The notes under the pieces were generated by a model. The model did no database searches, had not been told where the DNA came from, and saw only the letters and a program-made list of their open reading frames with translations. DNA of 64,000 bases from an uncultured Gammaproteobacteria bacterium (GTDB taxonomy: Bacteria > Patescibacteriota > Patescibacteriia > JAHIZJ01): the NCBI GenBank assembly GCA_964594455.1, contig CAZQLY010000006.1:8629-72628 (forward strand), given 5' to 3'. Position 1 is the first letter of the stretch, and each line of letters opens with the position of its first letter. This document shows, piece after piece, positions 1 to 61,688 of the stretch. The position numbers and the translations under genes are program-made.

Positions 1-248
1 GCGAACGCGGTGGCTGTCTGAGTTCAAGATCAGCACAGAAGATATTTGATCGCGCATTGCATAAGGCGGGTATCAGCAAGAAGGCGACTTTTCACAGCTT
101 GAGACACAGCTTTGCCACTCATCTGCTGGAAAACGGCGTTGATATACGCTATGTTCAGGAATTGCTGGGTCATAACAGTATTAGAACCACGCAGATGTAC
201 ACGCGGATAACGAATCCAGGATTGAAAAGTATAACAAGCCCGCTTTAA
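1..248 (+). CDS. Tyrosine recombinase / phage-integrase family, C-terminal fragment (5' end lies outside the window)
   Basis: Frame open to the window edge. C-terminal catalytic motif [37 protein letters not shown] carries the conserved R, H-x-x-R and terminal Tyr typical of XerC/XerD/integrase family. Confidence 0.75.
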
Positions 249-4102: not shown

Positions 4103-5501
4103 GCTTTTTGGTGAGCAGATGCTTCTTTTCTTGCAATTCAGTAACACGATCACGAATCTGAGCTGCTCGCTCATATTCTTTGTTCCTGGCTGCTTCCAGC
4201 ATCTGGCGATTTAAATTGTTAACTATCGAATTAAATTCCTTGACAGGAATGTAGGGCATTTCAACCGTAATTCTTTGAGTAACATCTTCATCGGCCAACT
4301 TGGCTAGACTTTCTACTTTGCCAGTTCTCTGCCACTCAAAAGCGGAGAAAATAATTGATTGATATAACTGCTGGGCTTTTTGATAGGTTGATTTAGGAAG
4401 GTTTGGTACCATCAGGATCACGTCTCTCAATTCTTTGGCTCCAGCTTCAATCATTTCAATGCTCCACCAAGGCATAGCAGAGGCCCACCAGTATTGATCA
4501 CTATGCAATGAACGATCTAAGGCTTTTCTAATAGACGGATATTTCTTAGACTTGGGGTTCAGATTGTTGACTGATTTAATAGCCATATTAGTCAGTTGCC
4601 ACTGGGCTTGGTGTATTTCATTATTCTTGTCGTTCCAGCGTGAAAAAGGAGTGTTTTGTTCGATGTCGCGCTGCATTAGAGCCCAGCTGGAGGAATGAGG
4701 GACTATCCCTTCTCGTTTTGTGAACACATCATTTAATTCCGACAAAGTGACGCTTTTTATTTGAGGAACTTTATATAAGTCAAAAAGCAGCTGCTCTAAT
4801 CCCGGGCGATGATGTCCAAAAGTCTCTCCATCCATGGCAGTCACGAGAAAATTCTTTTGTTGGAGACGCTTGCCGAGCAAATTAACTAACATTTTACTTG
4901 AAAAAACGCTCACGCCAACCTGAGCGGATAATATTCTGAAACTGACATCACGTTCACGGAAAAAGAAGGACAACTTTTCATCTCCCTTAAGATGGTAAAT
5001 TGTGTCGTGGCTAATGTTTTTATGATCGGGGTGAGCCAACTCATCCATAATAATCCAACGGTAGCCCAGCTTTTGAGCGACCTTGGCTATCTTGGGGGCA
5101 TATCCCATTTCGGTGGGGAAAAGACCGGTCGGATTATAGGATTTTCCAAAATATTTTTTGTTGGTCGCGTGATTGAGTTTAATCTGACGGATGATTTCTG
5201 ATTCTGGTAACAGGGGCAAAAAAGGATGGTATTTTGCCGTGTCAGTGAATTCTATTTGACCGCGATCAGCCAATTTTTTAATATCCCGCACAACATCCAG
5301 ACAACCGTCACGCTTAAAAAGCTCAACTAAAACAGCGTTTATGTTTAAAGTAAGACGGGCCTTGGGGTTTTTCAATAATCCAGCTACGATCTTGCGGTAG
5401 CTTTCATTTGCGATTTTCTTTACCCAATAACTCTTTTGAGTAGGTGGTTGATAAAAATGTAGAAAGTTTGCCCAATACATAAGGTAATTATAGATTAACA
5501 A
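4071..5501 (-). CDS. GH57 family glycoside hydrolase (alpha-amylase / branching-enzyme family) with a C-terminal UVR-like motif
   Basis: N-terminal WANFLHFYQPP GH57 signature. C-terminus EYERAAQIRDRVTELQEKK resembles the UvrB/UvrC UVR helical hairpin and is followed by a Lys/Arg-rich tail. Confidence 0.75.
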   Translation of the reverse strand: MLIYNYLMYWANFLHFYQPPTQKSYWVKKIANESYRKIVAGLLKNPKARLTLNINAVLVELFKRDGCLDVVRDIKKLADRGQIEFTDTAKYHPFLPLLPESEIIRQIKLNHATNKKYFGKSYNPTGLFPTEMGYAPKIAKVAQKLGYRWIIMDELAHPDHKNISHDTIYHLKGDEKLSFFFRERDVSFRILSAQVGVSVFSSKMLVNLLGKRLQQKNFLVTAMDGETFGHHRPGLEQLLFDLYKVPQIKSVTLSELNDVFTKREGIVPHSSSWALMQRDIEQNTPFSRWNDKNNEIHQAQWQLTNMAIKSVNNLNPKSKKYPSIRKALDRSLHSDQYWWASAMPWWSIEMIEAGAKELRDVILMVPNLPKSTYQKAQQLYQSIIFSAFEWQRTGKVESLAKLADEDVTQRITVEMPYIPVKEFNSIVNNLNRQMLEAARNKEYERAAQIRDRVTELQEKKHLLTKKHGSRRKKKAA

Positions 5502-6756: not shown

Positions 6757-8235
6757 TTAAGACTTTTTACCCTCTGAATAACGTAGAGCTAAGCGGTATA
6801 GTTTAACATATTTTTTAGCGGGAATTTCCCAGGAATAACTTTTGTGCATACCAACAACGACTAGATCGTGCCAGCTATCATCATATTTGTAAGTTTCCAA
6901 AGCTCGGGTTATAGCAATTAACAAGTCTCGCGAATCGTATCGTTTAAAGACAAAGCCGTTACCTTTCTTAGTTTTGGGGTTATAGTCAGTTACTGTGTCG
7001 ACCAGTCCCCCAACAGCGCTGACTATTGGTACAGAACCATAACGTAGGCTGATCAGCTGCCCCAAACCGCAAGGTTCAAAGCGCGAAGGCATGAGAAACA
7101 TATCTGAGCCGGCATATATTTGACTGGCCTTCTTGGTGTCAAATATCAGATGACTGCCAACTTTCTTGGAATATTTTTTAGTAATTTTCCTGAAATATTT
7201 TTCATACCTTTTTTCGCCACCACCAACCAGTACCAACTGAAGGTCTTGACGCATTAAGGGTTCGATAATTTCCATTATTAGATCAAAGCCTTTTTGTTCG
7301 GTAATTCTCGAGACCATTCCGATTAAAGGCACGCCGGGCGTTTCCGGTAGGTTAAATTCTTTTTGCAGAAAATGCTTGTTCTTTTCTTTTTTATGTAGCG
7401 AATTAAAATCGTAGTTTTTATGCAAACCGGGATCAGTAGCCGGGTTGAAGTCGAAATAATCAATCCCGTTGATTATTCCAAATAAGCGATCTTTGCGATT
7501 CAAGAGAATGCGATGTAAATCCTGCCCGAATTCCTTGGTTATTATTTCTTGAGCGTACTGTTCTGAAACAGTGTTGATCACATCAGCATAGAGTATGGCT
7601 CGTTTGGCAAAGTTTATGCAGCTGATTGCTTCTTTGTCAGAAAAGAGGGGTAGGCGTGAGTGACCGTAATCCTTCTTTTCAGGAGGGACGGTCCACCAAT
7701 CTTGTCCCATTTGAAAAGCCAAATTATGTATGGTAAAAAGAGTAGCCGTGTCCTTGAAAAATGAATTATTGCGGAAACGCTTCTTCAAGAAATAAGGGAT
7801 TAAACCAGTATGCCATTCATGGCAGTGTACTATATCTGGCTTGAAGTTCATTAGGGTAAGGAGTTTCAAAGCCGCCAAGGAAAAAAATAAAAACCTTCGG
7901 TTGTCATCCTGGGATCCATAGATAAACTTGTATTTACCGAAATGATGGTAATGTTCCACAAAGAACACCGGCAAGCCAGGCATCAACTCGCCCTGCCAGA
8001 AGTTAGCGTGCCGAACGTTTTTATCATCTATCTTGATAGGAATGTTCTCAGCGTATTTTTTTAAGTTATATTTTTTTACATCAATAACTCCATGTAGGGG
8101 CATGATGGCCACTACTTCATGATTTAGCCGATGCAAAGCTTTGGGCAGTGATCGAGCGACATCTGCTTGGCCGCCCGCTTTGGCAAACGGAGCGATTTCA
8201 GCGGAGATAGACGCTATTTTTAATTGCTTGGGCAT
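6757..8235 (-). CDS. glgA: Glycogen-synthase-like GT5 glycosyltransferase (second GlgA paralog)
   Basis: AKAGGQADVARSLPKAL N-terminal motif. C-terminal block AGSDMFLMPSRFEPCGLGQLISLRYG identical to the first GlgA. Confidence 0.8.
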   Translation of the reverse strand: MPKQLKIASISAEIAPFAKAGGQADVARSLPKALHRLNHEVVAIMPLHGVIDVKKYNLKKYAENIPIKIDDKNVRHANFWQGELMPGLPVFFVEHYHHFGKYKFIYGSQDDNRRFLFFSLAALKLLTLMNFKPDIVHCHEWHTGLIPYFLKKRFRNNSFFKDTATLFTIHNLAFQMGQDWWTVPPEKKDYGHSRLPLFSDKEAISCINFAKRAILYADVINTVSEQYAQEIITKEFGQDLHRILLNRKDRLFGIINGIDYFDFNPATDPGLHKNYDFNSLHKKEKNKHFLQKEFNLPETPGVPLIGMVSRITEQKGFDLIMEIIEPLMRQDLQLVLVGGGEKRYEKYFRKITKKYSKKVGSHLIFDTKKASQIYAGSDMFLMPSRFEPCGLGQLISLRYGSVPIVSAVGGLVDTVTDYNPKTKKGNGFVFKRYDSRDLLIAITRALETYKYDDSWHDLVVVGMHKSYSWEIPAKKYVKLYRLALRYSEGKKS

Positions 8236-19544: not shown

Positions 19545-20516
19545 TTATGCCGTTTGTCTCAAGAATTTCTCAACTATTTTTTTGGCTTCGTTAGAATTTT
19601 TTACTGCCATTAGCTTAATTCGTAGTTCTTTGGCCTCAGGAAAGCCGGCGGCGTAGGCTTTGAAATGCTTTTTCATCACGTCAAAGTTCTTTTTATTTTT
19701 GTATAATTTCTCAAAAAGCTTAGCATGTTCGAGCATTACTTTAAGCTGTTTTTCTATAGGCAGATCATCTTTATTAGTTTTGGGATTAAAGAGCCAAGGG
19801 TTGCCAAATATACCTCGTCCAATCATTACTCCGTCTACGTTATATTTGGTAACATGCTTTTTTGCCTCGGGTAAGGAATTAACATCGCCGTTTCCGATTA
19901 TCAAAGCCTGGCTTTTCATCTGATTGCGTATCTTCACAGCCTGGTGTATGGATTTCCAATCGGCCGGTACTTTTGACATCTGCTTTCTGGTGCGGCCATG
20001 AATAGTAATAGCAGCTGGTTCGGTGTTCAACAGAGTTTTAATCCATTCACTAATAATATTGGTATTGTAGCCTAGGCGGGTTTTGACTGAGATTGGCAGT
20101 GTGCCGGCTCCGCGTTTGGTAGCCAAAATGATTTCCTGAGCCAGTTCTGGTTCGCGGAGCAGAGCCACTCCACCGCCTTGCTTAACTACATTTTTTTCCG
20201 GACAACCCATATTGATGTCTATGCCGTCAAAATTCAGCGACTGAAGTAACTGAGCTGTTTTATAAAACTGCTCTGGTTTTGTGCCCCAGATTTGAGCAAT
20301 GATCGGCTTTTCTTTTTTTGTATAATATAAATCTTCGATAACCTTTTTCTTTCCTGCAGAACACAACCCAGCCACGGAAATAAACTCAGTAAAGAATAAA
20401 TCGGGCTGGCCATACTTGGCTATGATTTGCCGAAAAGCCGAATCAGTCACATCTGACATCGGCGCCAGGCAATAAATAGGTTTATTTAATTGTTTCCAAA
20501 TGTTTTTCTTTTTCAT
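19545..20516 (-). CDS. tRNA-dihydrouridine synthase
   Basis: LAPMSDVTDSAFRQI Dus signature and TIM-barrel FMN motifs. Start set at the internal Met. Confidence 0.85.
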   Translation of the reverse strand: MKKKNIWKQLNKPIYCLAPMSDVTDSAFRQIIAKYGQPDLFFTEFISVAGLCSAGKKKVIEDLYYTKKEKPIIAQIWGTKPEQFYKTAQLLQSLNFDGIDINMGCPEKNVVKQGGGVALLREPELAQEIILATKRGAGTLPISVKTRLGYNTNIISEWIKTLLNTEPAAITIHGRTRKQMSKVPADWKSIHQAVKIRNQMKSQALIIGNGDVNSLPEAKKHVTKYNVDGVMIGRGIFGNPWLFNPKTNKDDLPIEKQLKVMLEHAKLFEKLYKNKKNFDVMKKHFKAYAAGFPEAKELRIKLMAVKNSNEAKKIVEKFLRQTA

Positions 20517-20526
20517 AAGAGAAGTA

Positions 20527-20555
20527 TTGACAAAATGTAAGAAAGGTGCTAATAT
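20527..20555 (+). promoter_or_regulatory. Sigma70-like promoter TTGACA-17-TAATAT facing the GC-rich ORF
   Basis: TTGACA 20527-20532, 17-nt spacer, TAATAT 20550-20555. Confidence 0.35.
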
Positions 20556-20674
20556 GCCTTGTTTTCGCGGTCTCATGATGTGCGAGGACAAGCCCTTTCC
20601 TAAAGTGCAGTAAGCCTTAAATTCTCGAAATACGGGAGTAAGAGGCAGGCTGTCAAAGAGGAGGCTAAAAAGCC

Positions 20675-21298
20675 ATGAGTAGGAAGATTGACGTTGATCT
20701 GCGGGACGGTCTGGCTATCTACAGCCGCTTTGGTCAGGTTATCAGAGCGTTGGTGGACGGTCTCAAGAAGCGCGGCGGTACTCTCGACGATCTCTGGAAG
20801 GTTTTCAGGTCACAGGAAGCCCTGAACCAGATTCTGGACATTCTCAGATCGGTTGACATCAACCTGATCTCTCTGCGCATCAACTGGTCGGACGAGCCCT
20901 GGAATATCGTCACGCGGAGCGTGCTGAACAACGCGGTGGCCGGCAACTTCGTTAATATCCCGGATGGCGAGTATCTAGAAGGTGTATCGGAACATCGGTA
21001 TATGCTGGTCGATCCACCGAAGCACCCGTTGCCGTTATCCGATCTCATTGATTGGTGTCAAATGAACAGTTATGTTCCGGCTACAGCGCTGGAGCTGTTC
21101 AATCTCGTTCTCCAGAATGAGACTATTGAAGAACGTTTTCGTGGCTGGAAGATCCTGGCGATTGTTGCCCATGGGACCGGCACAGATTACTACGGCAAGT
21201 GTCCCTATGTCTGCTTTGGCGATCGCTGGACCGTCGGTTATCATGATACCACGGCCAGGTCGACAACCCCGCCCAAGATCCTAGTTCGAGTCTCCTAG
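20675..21298 (+). CDS. Hypothetical protein (207 aa) in a GC-rich island, no recognisable domain
   Basis: GC about 55-58 % against an about 40 % background. SD GAGGAGG 10 nt upstream of ATG. Hairpin terminator downstream. Several shadow ORFs overlap. Confidence 0.55.
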   Translation: MSRKIDVDLRDGLAIYSRFGQVIRALVDGLKKRGGTLDDLWKVFRSQEALNQILDILRSVDINLISLRINWSDEPWNIVTRSVLNNAVAGNFVNIPDGEYLEGVSEHRYMLVDPPKHPLPLSDLIDWCQMNSYVPATALELFNLVLQNETIEERFRGWKILAIVAHGTGTDYYGKCPYVCFGDRWTVGYHDTTARSTTPPKILVRVS

Positions 21299-21317
21299 CG
21301 CCAATGCGCAACCTTCG

Positions 21318-21357
21318 GGCCGGTGAGTCACCTTGACTTGCCGGCCTCTTTTTTTAT
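21318..21357 (+). terminator. Hairpin (GGCCGG...CCGGCC) plus T9 terminator after the GC-rich ORF
   Basis: Stem 21318-21346, T-run 21348-21356. Overlaps the 3' end of the convergent sufU-like gene. Confidence 0.5.
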
Positions 21358-21699
21358 TGTATAGAGCGGAAGAGTGGCGCATTTATGACGGACAGGGGAA
21401 AGTTTTACGTTTAATTTTTTAACCAACTCCTCGCTGTTTATCTTTTTGGCCTGTTCCATGGTTTTGCCTTTTATCATTTCAGAAAATATAGAAGCCCCGG
21501 CCTGGGAGATAGCACAGCCCGCACCCTCCCAAGTGGCTTTCTTTATTCGTTTTTGCTTGTCCAGTGATACGTAAATAGTAAGCTGATCACCGCAGGAATA
21601 ATTAGCGCCCTTGAAGGTTTTCGAGGCGTTCTTAAGCCGGCCTTTATTCAAGGGCTGGCGGAAATGTTTCATTATTTCTAGATTGTAGGCGCTGACCAT
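21328..21699 (-). CDS. SufU/NifU-like Fe-S cluster scaffold protein
   Basis: CGD, GCAIS and HKCATLP cysteine motifs, 123 aa. Confidence 0.8.
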   Translation of the reverse strand: MVSAYNLEIMKHFRQPLNKGRLKNASKTFKGANYSCGDQLTIYVSLDKQKRIKKATWEGAGCAISQAGASIFSEMIKGKTMEQAKKINSEELVKKLNVKLSPVRHKCATLPLYTIKKEAGKSR

Positions 21700-22898
21700 T
21701 GTTGGATAATAGTTTTTAAAGACTTGATAAAGTAGTCTATTTCTTTTTTATTGTTGTAGATATAGAAGCTGAGGCGAGCCGTGGCCGGAGTTTTTAAAAC
21801 TTTGTGCAAGGGCTGAGCACAATGATTGCCCGCCCTAATGGCAATACCATAATTATCCAGCAAAGCGGCAATATCATGAGGATGAATGTTTTTGACAGTA
21901 AAACTGATAACACCTATACGGTCTTTGGGGGTCGGACCGTAAATAGTCACCTCTGGTATCCGCGACAGTTTTTTATAGGCGTAGGCGGTTAATTCCTGTT
22001 CGTGAGCCTTTATTTTGTTTAAGCCGATTTTTTTTAAGTAGACAATAGCTGCTCCTAGGCCCACTGCTTGAGCCATGGGTTGAGTTCCAGCTTCGAATTT
22101 CCAGGGCGGAGTATCAAATGTAGCTTTTTGTTTGGTTACGCTCTCGATCATGTCTCCGCCGGTTTGATAAGGGCGCATTTCTTTCAGCCGAGCGTCATTG
22201 GCGTATAGTATGCCCAGCCCGGTCGGGCCTAGCATCTTATGACTGGAAAAAGCCAGAAAGTCTGGTTTTAGTTTGCCAACATTTAAGGGGAGGTGGGGGG
22301 CGCTCTGAGCCGCGTCTATGAGTACTGGGATTCGTTTCTGATGCGCCAGCTTGATGATTTTTTCTATAGGATTAATCGTACCCAATACGTTTGAAACGTG
22401 GGTTAAGGACAATAATTTTACGCCTTGAAGCAGTTTTGATATGCCAGTCGTTACTAACTTTCCGTTATGATCTATGGGCCAATATTTCAGCCTAAGCTTT
22501 TTTTCTTGAGCTAGCATCTGCCAGGGAACAATGTTGGCGTGGTGTTCCATTTCAGTTATCAAAATTGTATCGCCCGGGTTTAAACTAAACTTGGCCCAGG
22601 CCTGAGCCACCAGGTTGATACTTTCCGTGGCTCCCTTGGTAAAGATAATGTTTTTTGAATCAGCTGCGTTGATAAATTGGGCTACTTGTTCGCGCGCTCC
22701 CTCGTATTTTTGATTGGCAATATTAGCCAGCTCATACATGCCGCGGTGGATATTAGCATTTGTTTTCTCATACCAGTTGGTCGTTGCCTGGATGACCGCT
22801 TGCGGCTTCTGGCTGGTGGAAGCAGAGTCAAAATAAATCAAAGGCTTGCCAGAGGGTCGGTATTTTTTGAAAATGGGAAAATCTTTTTTGTAATCCAT
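21678..22898 (-). CDS. sufS: Cysteine desulfurase (class V aminotransferase)
   Basis: PLP-lysine region SSHKMLGPTGLGILY, 406 aa, in the suf operon. Confidence 0.85.
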   Translation of the reverse strand: MDYKKDFPIFKKYRPSGKPLIYFDSASTSQKPQAVIQATTNWYEKTNANIHRGMYELANIANQKYEGAREQVAQFINAADSKNIIFTKGATESINLVAQAWAKFSLNPGDTILITEMEHHANIVPWQMLAQEKKLRLKYWPIDHNGKLVTTGISKLLQGVKLLSLTHVSNVLGTINPIEKIIKLAHQKRIPVLIDAAQSAPHLPLNVGKLKPDFLAFSSHKMLGPTGLGILYANDARLKEMRPYQTGGDMIESVTKQKATFDTPPWKFEAGTQPMAQAVGLGAAIVYLKKIGLNKIKAHEQELTAYAYKKLSRIPEVTIYGPTPKDRIGVISFTVKNIHPHDIAALLDNYGIAIRAGNHCAQPLHKVLKTPATARLSFYIYNNKKEIDYFIKSLKTIIQQWSAPTI

Positions 22899-58808: not shown

Positions 58809-58837
58809 TTGACAAGATCATAACTGCCTGATAAGGT
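58809..58837 (+). promoter_or_regulatory. Possible promoter TTGACA-17-TAAGGT at the AT-rich / GC-rich junction
   Basis: TTGACA 58809-58814. Weak -10. Confidence 0.25.
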
Positions 58838-58888
58838 GGTCGCAGCGTTCGCTATTTGACCTGGGAAGCCATATGAGGGAGGAAGACC

Positions 58889-59140
58889 ATGAAGCTTCAA
58901 TTGGGGCAAGTTGTGAATTTGTACAAGCTAAAGAAGCCGGGCTCAAATGAGATGGATATGTTTCCGCTTTCCCCGGGCATCCATGAGTTTGAGGAGGTAC
59001 CCAATCCGAGTGGGGGAACTGGTGGGATGCCCTGGCTGGTCCTAAAATCGGATCAGCTGTGCGGGATGGCCAAGGTGGCCCTTCTCAACAAGCCGGGCGT
59101 GACCGAGATTCAGGAGGAGGCACCGGCTGAGGGGAAGTAG
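58889..59140 (+). CDS. Hypothetical protein (83 aa) in a GC-rich island
   Basis: SD GAGGGAGG 6 nt before ATG. GC-rich. Terminator immediately after. Confidence 0.5.
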   Translation: MKLQLGQVVNLYKLKKPGSNEMDMFPLSPGIHEFEEVPNPSGGTGGMPWLVLKSDQLCGMAKVALLNKPGVTEIQEEAPAEGK

Positions 59141-59153
59141 GAGGCAGCATCGT

Positions 59154-59182
59154 GAGGCTGAAACAATCAGCCTCTTTTTTTT
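59154..59182 (+). terminator. Rho-independent terminator (GAGGCTG-loop-CAGCCTC plus T8)
   Basis: 7-bp stem then eight T. Confidence 0.65.
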
Positions 59183-60754: not shown

Positions 60755-60856
60755 TTGATCCTTATAAGAATATCGTGATTATTATACTGGTTTGTCGATT
60801 GTTTGAGAAGTGTTTTGTTATTAGTAACCCGCCTCCGGTCAGCAACACCCCTCATC

Positions 60857-60881
60857 GTCATGCCGGACCGGGATCCGGCAT
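60857..60881. repeat. GC-rich palindromic element, copy B (the outer stem only)
   Basis: GTCATGCCGGA-CCGGGA-TCCGGCATC. Same GTCATGCCG(A/G)A terminus as copy A, inside a GC-rich patch at 60827-60895. Confidence 0.5.
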
Positions 60882-60976
60882 CTCAAATATCCGCCTAAGT
60901 TATTTACGGAGACTAAAGATTACGTAATATTGTTATGATTCATACTTTTAGTCCCTCTCAAATAATACCTCTAGGT

Positions 60977-61011
60977 AAATAAAAATGCGCCGATCTATAG
61001 AAGATCGGCGC
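60977..61011 (-). terminator. Rho-independent terminator of the GC-rich secreted-protein gene (10-bp stem GCGCCGATCT / AGATCGGCGC)
   Basis: Stem 60987-61011. Minus-strand T-run is the complement of AAATAAAAAT. Confidence 0.55.
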
Positions 61012-61027
61012 GGACCGTGGAGTATTG

Positions 61028-61543
61028 CTAGCAGCGCATGACGGTCCGGAGTACCCGGGTGACCTCGGCGACATCGTTGGCCGTCCTCGCGCTCGACTGG
61101 GCCGCATTGTTGACCGTGCAGCAATCGCGCGCATTCACCTGGATCCTTCCCGAGTTGTTGGCGACATCGTAGTTCTTGGCGATGAGGGCCGCGCTATTGA
61201 CCGCGTCGTCGATGTAGCAGCCGGAGCGCGCGTTCGCCTCGATCTTGACTTGGTGAACCGCGCACATGGTCTCGTGGGCGCAGGTCCGTCCGCTGATTTC
61301 TTCGTAATTGAGATTCTCGATCCTCGTCTGGGCCGCGTCGAAACGGAAATCGGCCGCCATGATCGGGCTGGCCTTGTTGGCGATCGCCTCGACGTTGCTG
61401 TTCTCCACGACTTGCTCGTTCAGCATCGCGATCTGCGGGGTCGTGGCGAGCTCCGCCTTCTCGACCGCCATCGCGCTTCCGGAAATGAACAGGATCGCCA
61501 GAACGGCGATCAGTGGAACAAGGGGCCAGAGTCTTCTCATCAT
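61028..61543 (-). CDS. Hypothetical secreted Cys-containing protein (171 aa) in a very GC-rich island
   Basis: GC about 62-65 %. Perfect SD AAGGAGG 4-7 nt before ATGATG. Signal peptide MMRRLWPLVPLIAVLAILFISGSAMA/VEK. Six Cys. Own terminator. The two plus-strand ORFs and one minus-strand ORF overlapping this island are taken as shadows. Confidence 0.6.
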   Translation of the reverse strand: MMRRLWPLVPLIAVLAILFISGSAMAVEKAELATTPQIAMLNEQVVENSNVEAIANKASPIMAADFRFDAAQTRIENLNYEEISGRTCAHETMCAVHQVKIEANARSGCYIDDAVNSAALIAKNYDVANNSGRIQVNARDCCTVNNAAQSSARTANDVAEVTRVLRTVMRC

Positions 61544-61608
61544 CGTTCCTCCTTGAGTTGGAGAGACAACCAGCGCATGTGTCTACCACCGTTGTACCAC
61601 GAAAGCAT

Positions 61609-61635
61609 AAAAAAACAGCCTTCGAAATTAGGCTA
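61609..61635 (-). terminator. Hairpin plus T7 terminator downstream of xseB
   Basis: AGCCT...AGGCT stem. The minus strand reads ...AGGCTGTTTTTTT. Confidence 0.4.
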
Positions 61636-61688
61636 ACATAAAAACATAAACATAAATTAGGCAAGTCCTAAACTTTTTTATGAGTATT

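Follow-up and report, generated by a model that had tools for sequence, protein, structure and literature searches.

In a passage of a published account (PMC2920897), a phage moron (Hendrix/Juhala concept) is defined by its own promoter and terminator, a deviant GC content, and a position between genes that are adjacent in relatives, where it is found at the same location and is variably present. Here, we describe a moron-like cassette in a 64-kb stretch of a Patescibacteria chromosome (contig CAZQLY010000006.1, assembly GCA_964594455.1; hereafter, the window), the overall GC content of which is 42.7%. The cassette holds one open reading frame (ORF) of 207 amino acids (aa), which we refer to as X, and is known in two copies, i.e. 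that in the window and that in the Patescibacteria metagenome-assembled genome (MAG) GCA_028714495.1 (L001), where X corresponds to protein P0002. As in morons, X is one additional gene, set between sufU and dus, which neighbour each other in relatives and are here separated by 832 bp; it has its own predicted sigma-70 promoter and factor-independent terminator in both copies; its GC content is 53.0% and its GC content at third codon positions (GC3) is 0.64, compared with at most 0.51 in native ORFs of at least 150 aa; and the unit occurs at the same location and is variably present among relatives. X differs from morons in that it carries an elaborate conserved 5' leader and in that its cargo is without a known function.

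The free-standing homing endonuclease genes of the seg and mob groups in T4-like phages are intergenic and patchily distributed, and have their own promoter and a ribosome-binding site sequestered in a hairpin. X shares these properties; however, no nuclease motif was detected in it, and it belongs to a tiny family, is chromosomal and has no evident shared target sequence. The leader of X resembles leaders that sequester the Shine-Dalgarno (SD) sequence, such as translational riboswitches, RNA thermometers and autoregulatory operators, in forming a long hairpin, the base of which pairs with the SD, and in a compensatory change that retains this pairing (GGAGG/UUUCC versus GAAGG/CUUUU). By contrast, the leader is known from two sequences and is without a match in Rfam 15 (no family at the gathering score in the window, and chance-level matches only at E ≤ 10 over 20480-21420) and, unlike in simple RNA thermometers, its upper stem is conserved in sequence. 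Finally, X is similar to lineage-specific ORFans in accessory islets in its narrow clade, its fast evolution (46% identity where Dus has 61%) and its atypical composition, and differs from them in that its untranslated regions (UTRs) and terminator are unusually conserved, its insertion point is exactly mapped and its neighbour is re-tailed.

A single-gene cassette at the sufU/dus junction

An earlier note on this DNA had described a GC-rich island that lies between dus and the suf operon and brings its own signals for expression, a reading that amounts to an accessory or foreign insert, and had set the comparison with sister genomes beforehand as the test of the insert. We fetched the contexts of the closest matches of the window Dus, i.e. 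L020 (GCA_018814425.1), L017 (GCA_016294925.1) and L019 (GCA_018814765.1), all three of which are free of the insert, in support of the proposal. In L020, which is the closest relative found (85%, 86% and 74% identity to the window for SufS, SufU and Dus, respectively), sufD-sufS-sufU-dus are contiguous and the dus ATG lies within the last sufU codons. In L017, Rrf2-sufCBDSU is followed after 5 bp by dus and then, as in the window, by genes for a glycosyltransferase, a peroxiredoxin and superoxide dismutase (SOD). Thus, the dus ATG overlaps or abuts the sufU tail in these two relatives, while L019 has neither the suf operon nor X. The flanks of the cassette site, consisting of sufCBDSU, dus and the glycosyltransferase, peroxiredoxin and SOD genes, are syntenic across four MAGs.

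The features of the cassette and of the two genes next to it are as follows (positions in the window).

19545-20516, minus strand: dus, tRNA-dihydrouridine synthase; true start ATG 20516, 11 nt from the -35 box of the cassette
20518-21349, no strand: insert relative to empty sufU/dus junctions, ~832 bp (gapped alignment to L020 and L017)
20527-20555, plus strand: predicted sigma-70-type promoter, TTGACA-17-TAATAT with a TG extension (promoter scan, 10 of 12 consensus positions)
20562-20588, plus strand: predicted leader hairpin P0, TTTTCGC ... GCGAGGA (independent minimum free energy folds of both leaders)
20598-20662, plus strand: predicted long interrupted leader hairpin P1-P4 (folds, pairing test, covariance-model search)
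20598-20601 and 20659-20662, plus strand: P1, UCCU paired with AGGA inside the SD (fold)
20607-20611 and 20649-20653, plus strand: P2 (fold)
20614-20618 and 20642-20646, plus strand: P3, GCCUU paired with GAGGC (fold)
20621-20627 and 20633-20639, plus strand: P4, with loop AAAUA at 20628-20632 (fold)
20658-20664, plus strand: SD GAGGAGG, 10 nt before the ATG, partly paired in P1 (sequence, fold)
20675-21298, plus strand: ORF X, 207 aa, predicted soluble, two-member family (ORF call, homologue searches, codon-position differences)
21317-21355, plus strand: predicted intrinsic terminator with a 14-bp stem, two G-U pairs, loop CCU and T7 (folding, scan)
21328-21699, minus strand: sufU, NifU_N scaffold, last gene of sufCBDSU, cut off from dus by the cassette (ORF call, comparison)
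21328-21351, minus strand: last seven codons and stop of sufU (KEAGKSR and stop), terminator-encoded, ancestral tail replaced (comparison with relatives)

To map the cassette boundaries, we used gapped alignments of the window minus strand to L020 and L017. Homology spans sufU to "...ACAATAAAA" (~21350) and picks up again at the dus start "ATGAAAAAGAAAAAC" (20516). The insert is bordered in the window by the two halves of the ancestral junction (ACAATAAAA / ATGAAAAAG...), and, when joined, these are the L017/L020 junction "AAAGATGAAAAA...". Because the two halves rebuild this junction, 20518-21349 represents an insertion into an intact sufU/dus overlap. Together, these alignments show that the cassette is inserted antisense into a Patescibacteria chromosome, at the exact point where the sufU and dus cistrons meet, and that a predicted convergent transcription unit now lies between two genes that are adjacent or overlapping in relatives.

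The insertion also reached into sufU. As the earlier note had observed, the terminator intrudes into the last codons of this convergent gene: sufU terminates within the hairpin (stop codon at 21328-21330, minus strand), and its last codons are the reverse complement of the hairpin 3' arm and the T-run. The SufU tail in the window (TIK-KEAGKSR and stop) departs from those of the relatives (TIKDAEKIITKK and stop; IVKDEKNN... and stop) exactly where the terminator sequence begins, which bears out the suspicion that the SufU C-terminus had been altered; however, the length of SufU is normal, i.e. the protein is re-tailed and not truncated. The cassette re-tails a gene of an essential pathway and severs dus from its translationally coupled upstream partner, and the locus provides a base-pair-resolved case of a single accessory gene entering a tightly packed operon of a reduced candidate phyla radiation (CPR) genome. 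The database Dus protein P0003 (348 aa) and the mechanical ORF start at TTG 20591, inside the X leader, while four Dus orthologues place the real start at ATG 20516 (323 aa).

In 200-nt windows over 20600-21399 the GC content is 50-55.5%, and it is ~38-47% in the flanks. The abrupt rise reported earlier is, therefore, real, while the 55-58% given for it was slightly too high. Among 57 non-overlapping ORFs of the window, X has one of the top four GC3 values. The similarity of the two cassettes begins at the -35 box (ATTGACAAA), where L001 has TTGACA-18-TAGTAT at the aligned place, and stops after the terminator. The predicted promoter thus marks the 5' limit of conservation between the two cassettes. 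The earlier note had identified TTGACA-17-TAATAT as a promoter in native AT-rich DNA; it is present, but because conservation runs from the -35 box onward and nothing aligns upstream of it, the promoter belongs to the cassette, and it is absent from the empty sites.

The terminator stem (21317-21347) is followed by CTTTTTTTAT and has a folding energy of -30.2 kcal/mol (z = -5.8); the stem GCCGGUGAGUC/GACUUGCCGGC is identical in L001. A strong hairpin terminator is thus present as described previously, with a run of T7 and not of T9. On the minus strand the hairpin has no U-tract, and no minus-strand promoter-like site for dus was found in 20300-21500. SD-like motifs precede only 6 of the 41 window ORFs of at least 150 aa, and two of the six belong to ORFs of GC-rich islands, i.e. 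X and a 171-aa ORF; in agreement with the earlier note, X is preceded by GAGGAGG and native genes are mostly without an SD.

In a scan of IMG/VR with the terminator stem, two related phage contigs (L021, 4868-4897; L022, 4725-4752) were found to have an ordinary intrinsic terminator with the same stem, GCCGGTGAGTC/GACTTGCCGGC, including both G-U pairs, after a 63-aa ORF. This likeness is probably coincidental.

The structured leader and the two-member family of X

When the ~110-nt leader of each copy was folded independently, the same order of elements was obtained: P0, P1-P4 and a small hairpin around the start codon (z-scores of -2.9 and -4.1 in the two copies). The base of the long hairpin pairs the SD with UCCU in the window or CUUUU in L001. 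In P0, eight pairs fall in the same alignment columns in both copies, with U-A to A-U and U-G to U-A changes; over the leader, 19 pairs fall in identical alignment columns. In the long hairpin, 32 of 32 cells pair (100%), compared with 44-56% when the 3' partners are slid. Three pairs of this hairpin are changed on both sides, one of them at the SD/anti-SD where the SD itself differs (GGAGG versus GAAGG), and the conserved G-U pairs fit a plus-strand RNA only. Moreover, the leader core (~20608-20655, GGUAAGCCUUA...GAAAUAC.GGA.UAAGAGGCAGGC) is ~89% identical to that of L001, while alignable DNA genome-wide has 63-76% identity between the window and L001. In total, these comparisons show that the two predicted leaders fold alike, with the SD paired with an upstream U/C-rich stretch, and we consider the leader a candidate new translational control element.

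Scans with a leader pattern of GTDB species genomes, IMG/VR and JGI metagenomes returned the known second genome only, the remaining matches (12, 0 and 9, respectively) being chance matches inside unrelated genes. Similarly, a covariance-model search of the window and seven related loci detected the leader in the two cassettes only. A leader peptide, MMCEDKPFPKVQ and stop, was rejected because it occurs in the window copy only.

The 207-aa ORF reported by the earlier note is present, and several lines of evidence bear on its coding status. A word-indexed search of 5.8e9 protein clusters returned a sole homologue, P0002 (209 aa; 46% identity over the full length), and in an exhaustive HMMER profile search of 1.84e9 representatives X and P0002 were alone at E ≤ 0.001. 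X thus defines a two-member protein family without detectable relatives among ~15 billion proteins. The two genes share start and stop, have near-identical lengths and all indels between them are in frame. Over 203 codons they differ at 83, 69 and 114 first, second and third positions, respectively. The proportions of differing nonsynonymous and synonymous sites (pN and pS) are 0.365 and 0.673, giving a ratio of nonsynonymous to synonymous substitution rates (dN/dS) of ~0.29 with dS near saturation, and the other two frames of X contain 7-14 stops. The third-position excess, the in-frame indels, the dN/dS and the stop-filled other frames together show that X is a genuine protein-coding gene under purifying selection. 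X evolves faster than Dus, for which dN/dS is ~0.11 between the window and L001.

The residues conserved between X and P0002 include many acidic positions, two invariant cysteines and no invariant histidine. With two conserved cysteines and no conserved histidine, this set argues against an iron-sulfur (Fe-S), zinc or HNH-type protein. By eye, the N-terminus of X is charged and neither a signal peptide nor a transmembrane or hydrophobic span is seen. As the earlier note had found no motif that it recognised, so our searches of Pfam, PHROGs, PADLOC, NCBIfam and PDB were without a significant match. For X and P0002, all matches in the first four databases were at noise level, with values of 0.21 for OmpA_membrane, 0.22 for a terminase and 0.048 for Csn2. 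The last of these, at E = 0.048 and for one of the two proteins, was the sole defence lead in PADLOC. The cassette contains a single ORF, i.e. the partner gene of a toxin-antitoxin system is absent. Nuclease domains (GIY-YIG, HNH, LAGLIDADG, PD-(D/E)xK and His-Cys box) were not matched by either protein in Pfam at E ≤ 10.

Two PDB profile matches were followed and rejected as chance leads. For U1A RRM1 (E = 0.013, residues 2-81), the RNA recognition motif family RRM_1 of Pfam was unmatched at E ≤ 10 and the counterpart of beta1/RNP2 is missing, low-confidence AlphaFold2 models placing helices there. For an ADAT2-like deaminase of the cytidine deaminase fold (E = 0.21), the zinc ligands are not conserved: the second cysteine of CPYVC is a tyrosine in P0002, and a conserved HxE is absent. 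AlphaFold2, run twice on the two-sequence alignment, gave unusable models with mean predicted local distance difference test (pLDDT) values of 36 and 42.5, and Foldseek with the better model had no match in PDB at E < 1. A tblastn search of phage and plasmid records found no copy of X, and a protein-pattern scan of IMG/VR viral contigs had no match. Thus, the biochemical function of X is not readable from its sequence.

Origin of the cassette and a possible role of X

The gene order in L001 is Dus (minus), X (plus), NifU_N/IscU, Aminotran_5 and Rrf2 (minus), a place equivalent to that in the window. The right-hand neighbours iscU and iscS are non-orthologous to the window pair (34% and 28% identity). 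L001 Dus is 61% identical to that of the window, compared with 71-76% in the insert-free relatives, and for almost every shared protein L001 is farther from the window than are L020, L017 and L019. The island is, therefore, not unique to the window, since this more distant MAG carries an orthologous cassette at the matching site.

Relatedness breaks at the sufU/dus junction. Comparison of the window with L020 gives pN values of 0.082 (SufS), 0.080 (SufU) and 0.158 (Dus); between the window and L017, Dus pN is 0.164, matching the value for L020, while the SufS and SufU pN differ threefold between the two comparisons. This break (19545-22898 versus L020 780-3223) implies a recombination breakpoint at the junction; in either the window or L020, the DNA to the left and to the right of it has not shared one history. 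The Fe-S module at the locus also varies among relatives, being of Suf type, of Isc type or missing. The variable module and the break in relatedness fit a scenario in which the cassette was acquired from a divergent carrier by homologous recombination. A co-transfer of dus from an L001-like donor is unsupported; because the window Dus is least similar to that of L001, the donor was probably not L001-like.

We propose that the X cassette is probably a moron-like accessory unit of ~0.83 kb, made up of a promoter, a ~110-nt leader, an SD, a 207-aa ORF and a terminator, that spreads laterally. The window lineage would have acquired the cassette laterally, probably by homologous recombination with DNA of a relative that had it upstream of dus already. 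The strong promoter would drive a leader-containing mRNA, and ribosome access to X would depend on the opening of P1, i.e. translation would be gated by the leader hairpin. The upper hairpin may be the recognition site for a trans-acting partner, which could be X itself, another protein, a small RNA or a ligand; a specific partner is suggested because conservation of the upper stem and loops extends to their sequence and is not confined to pairing. The T7 terminator would keep X transcription from running antisense into sufU. Since the minus-strand hairpin has no U-tract, transcription of suf may continue across the cassette, yielding antisense RNA and still reaching dus. A strong promoter paired with an occluded SD is a design found for gene products that have to be scarce; X may thus be a protein that is tolerated in tightly limited dose only, and we suggest with low confidence that X has a selfish, defence or toxin-like accessory role.

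Several points weigh against this reading. The host of X is a core suf-dus region of a chromosome and not a phage or prophage, and the term moron is thus an analogy and not a statement of membership. The promoter and terminator of the cassette are sequence predictions, and the suggestion of a dose-limited or toxic product is drawn from the regulatory anatomy. The covariation statistics of the leader are weak for two sequences, with 70 of 500 shuffles reaching the observed values. A repeat search at the cassette found neither convincing terminal inverted repeats nor a target-site duplication, and no recombinase that would mark the mechanism of transfer is present at the cassette. High GC alone is weak evidence of recent arrival: it does not date the arrival, because two other cassettes in the window, described below, keep their GC-richness stably. 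Finally, the pS of X is as deep as that of the flanking genes (0.73 for Dus and 0.79 for SOD), suggesting that the older history may be one of vertical descent with losses. The evidence base for both the X family and the leader is two genomes.

The depth of synonymous divergence would suit an X that was an old resident of the clade, present upstream of dus in the common ancestor, not mobile, and lost independently in L020, L017 and L019. Such a history agrees with the placement of X, which does not differ between the two carriers in position or orientation with respect to dus, and with the stable inheritance of the other GC-rich cassettes; reduced genomes and the loss of genes are frequent in Patescibacteria. 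However, the losses would have had to rebuild the junction of sufU tail and dus start precisely, two or three times, the empty sites are without remnants of the cassette, and in almost all proteins the window resembles the insert-free genomes more closely than it does L001; we consider this history unlikely. Instead, a gain in the window lineage is favoured over ancestral presence and loss, because independent precise deletions would be unlikely to regenerate a shared ancestral junction. That both carriers place X between dus and a cysteine desulfurase/scaffold pair, though the pairs are non-orthologous (Suf versus Isc type), could also mean that X is a partner of its neighbours in Fe-S assembly, the oxidative-stress response or tRNA modification by Dus, kept in place for co-regulation that may include an antisense interplay with suf-to-dus read-through. 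SOD and peroxiredoxin genes are nearby, and suf transcripts could read antisense through X as outlined above. Nevertheless, the nearest relatives run a suf-dus operon without X, two conserved cysteines and no conserved histidine make a poor ligand set for a metal or cluster, and X has no similarity to Suf, Isc or tRNA-modification families, the ADAT2 match lacking conserved zinc ligands. We find such a partnership quite improbable.

The two remaining explanations concern what the segment encodes. X could be a free-standing homing-type endonuclease of an unrecognised fold that cuts cassette-free sufU/iscU-dus junctions and is copied in by repair. This would account for the same target in two lineages and, through co-conversion, for the break in relatedness of the flanks. 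It would also account for the intergenic or overlapping site between conserved genes, the patchy distribution and the identical site in divergent genomes; moreover, T4 intron and free-standing endonuclease genes are known to have hairpins that sequester the SD. By contrast, none of GIY-YIG, HNH, LAGLIDADG and PD-(D/E)xK was found in Pfam at E = 10, the invariant residues include two cysteines only and no histidine, homing genes usually spread widely whereas this family has two members, and the right-hand flanks differ (sufU versus iscU plus a spacer), with no common target sequence evident. A homing function is, therefore, very improbable. The strongly conserved UTRs, the poor AlphaFold confidence and the lack of homologues with a known function would be expected if the ORF were spurious and the GC-rich segment were a non-coding RNA or compositional noise; however, the ORF is intact in both genomes with gaps in multiples of three, a third-position excess and stop-filled other frames, and the segment has no Rfam match. 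We give this explanation practically no credence.

Further observations were made at the cassette and at dus in other genomes. An 11-nt complementarity between leader and terminator is present in the window and is not conserved in L001. In L019, the whole suf/isc module is gone and a 750-bp gap (7245-8000) lies between the gene for serine hydroxymethyltransferase and dus; the gap contains what resembles, by eye, the C-terminal remnant of an IS1595-type transposase upstream of dus as well as a degraded response-regulator gene. The locus is a rearrangement hot spot. In L033 (199-453; Patescibacteria MAG GCA_029260895.1), a gene for an 84-aa GIY-YIG-domain protein, unrelated to X, lies directly upstream of dus as another small insert on the same side. 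A 207-aa unannotated protein that adjoins dus in L033 was also compared and is unrelated to X.

Other GC-rich ORFan units in the window

Two more GC-rich units with an ORFan are present in the window.

58810-59180, plus strand: second GC-rich single-gene unit, with a TTGACA promoter, a GGGAGG SD, an 83-aa ORFan at 58889-59140 and a hairpin with T8 terminator
61000-61670, minus strand: third GC-rich unit, downstream of xseB, with a 171-aa ORFan at 61028-61543, a TTGACA promoter, an AAGGAGG SD and its own terminator

The 83-aa ORFan (GC3 0.69) is antisense to its neighbours, which encode an S8 protease and LytR, and has no Pfam match; its orthologue in GCA_016294925.1 (L034 5951-6178, minus strand) is at the same place, has 75 aa, 53% identity and a GC3 of 0.58. 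The 171-aa ORFan has a signal-peptide-like N-terminus, a GC content of 61% and a GC3 of 0.85. Its sole homologue, P0123, has 134 aa, 55% identity and a GC3 of 0.84 and is syntenic in the same MAG (L034 4001-4405). Synonymous sites between these units and their relative in GCA_016294925.1 are saturated. Because the orthologues are equally GC-rich at this long divergence, high GC is a maintained property of the units and not necessarily a sign of fresh transfer. The strongest SDs in the window belong to the GC-rich ORFan units.

Conservation in the 171-aa unit is higher in the non-coding flanks than in the protein. A non-coding stretch of ~250 nt (60760-61010, minus strand) is ~90% identical to L034 ~4423-4660, while the proteins of the two genomes have 55-83% identity; it contains the hairpin GCCGGATCCCGGTCCGGC, with a TATAAT-type promoter further downstream. 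This stretch has no match in Rfam at E ≤ 1 and is a candidate small RNA or regulatory region.

X may exemplify a distinct class of units in an SD-poor Patescibacteria lineage, with at least three in the window (20527-21355, 58810-59180 and 61000-61670), although we regard this idea as a long shot. Each unit of this class would consist of a TTGACA-type promoter, a conserved structured leader, a strong SD, an ORFan kept GC-rich against an AT bias, and a strong terminator, and would represent a separately regulated, SD-dependent, fast-evolving effector or selfish gene. By the same tentative proposal the UTRs would evolve more slowly than the proteins, and the X unit would in addition be mobile, targeted to the sufU/dus junction and equipped with a leader that is a new cis-regulatory RNA. 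X alone opens no long-standing question, given the sample of two genomes and a function that is not assigned; together with the two similar cassettes, it hints that a small number of fast-evolving genes with special expression is retained in such lineages.

The window contains no tRNA genes. At its start, a C-terminal fragment of a tyrosine recombinase (57-248, plus strand, and 234-721) adjoins a GC-rich patch of up to 59% GC, which is probably the patch that the earlier note counted as its island 1.

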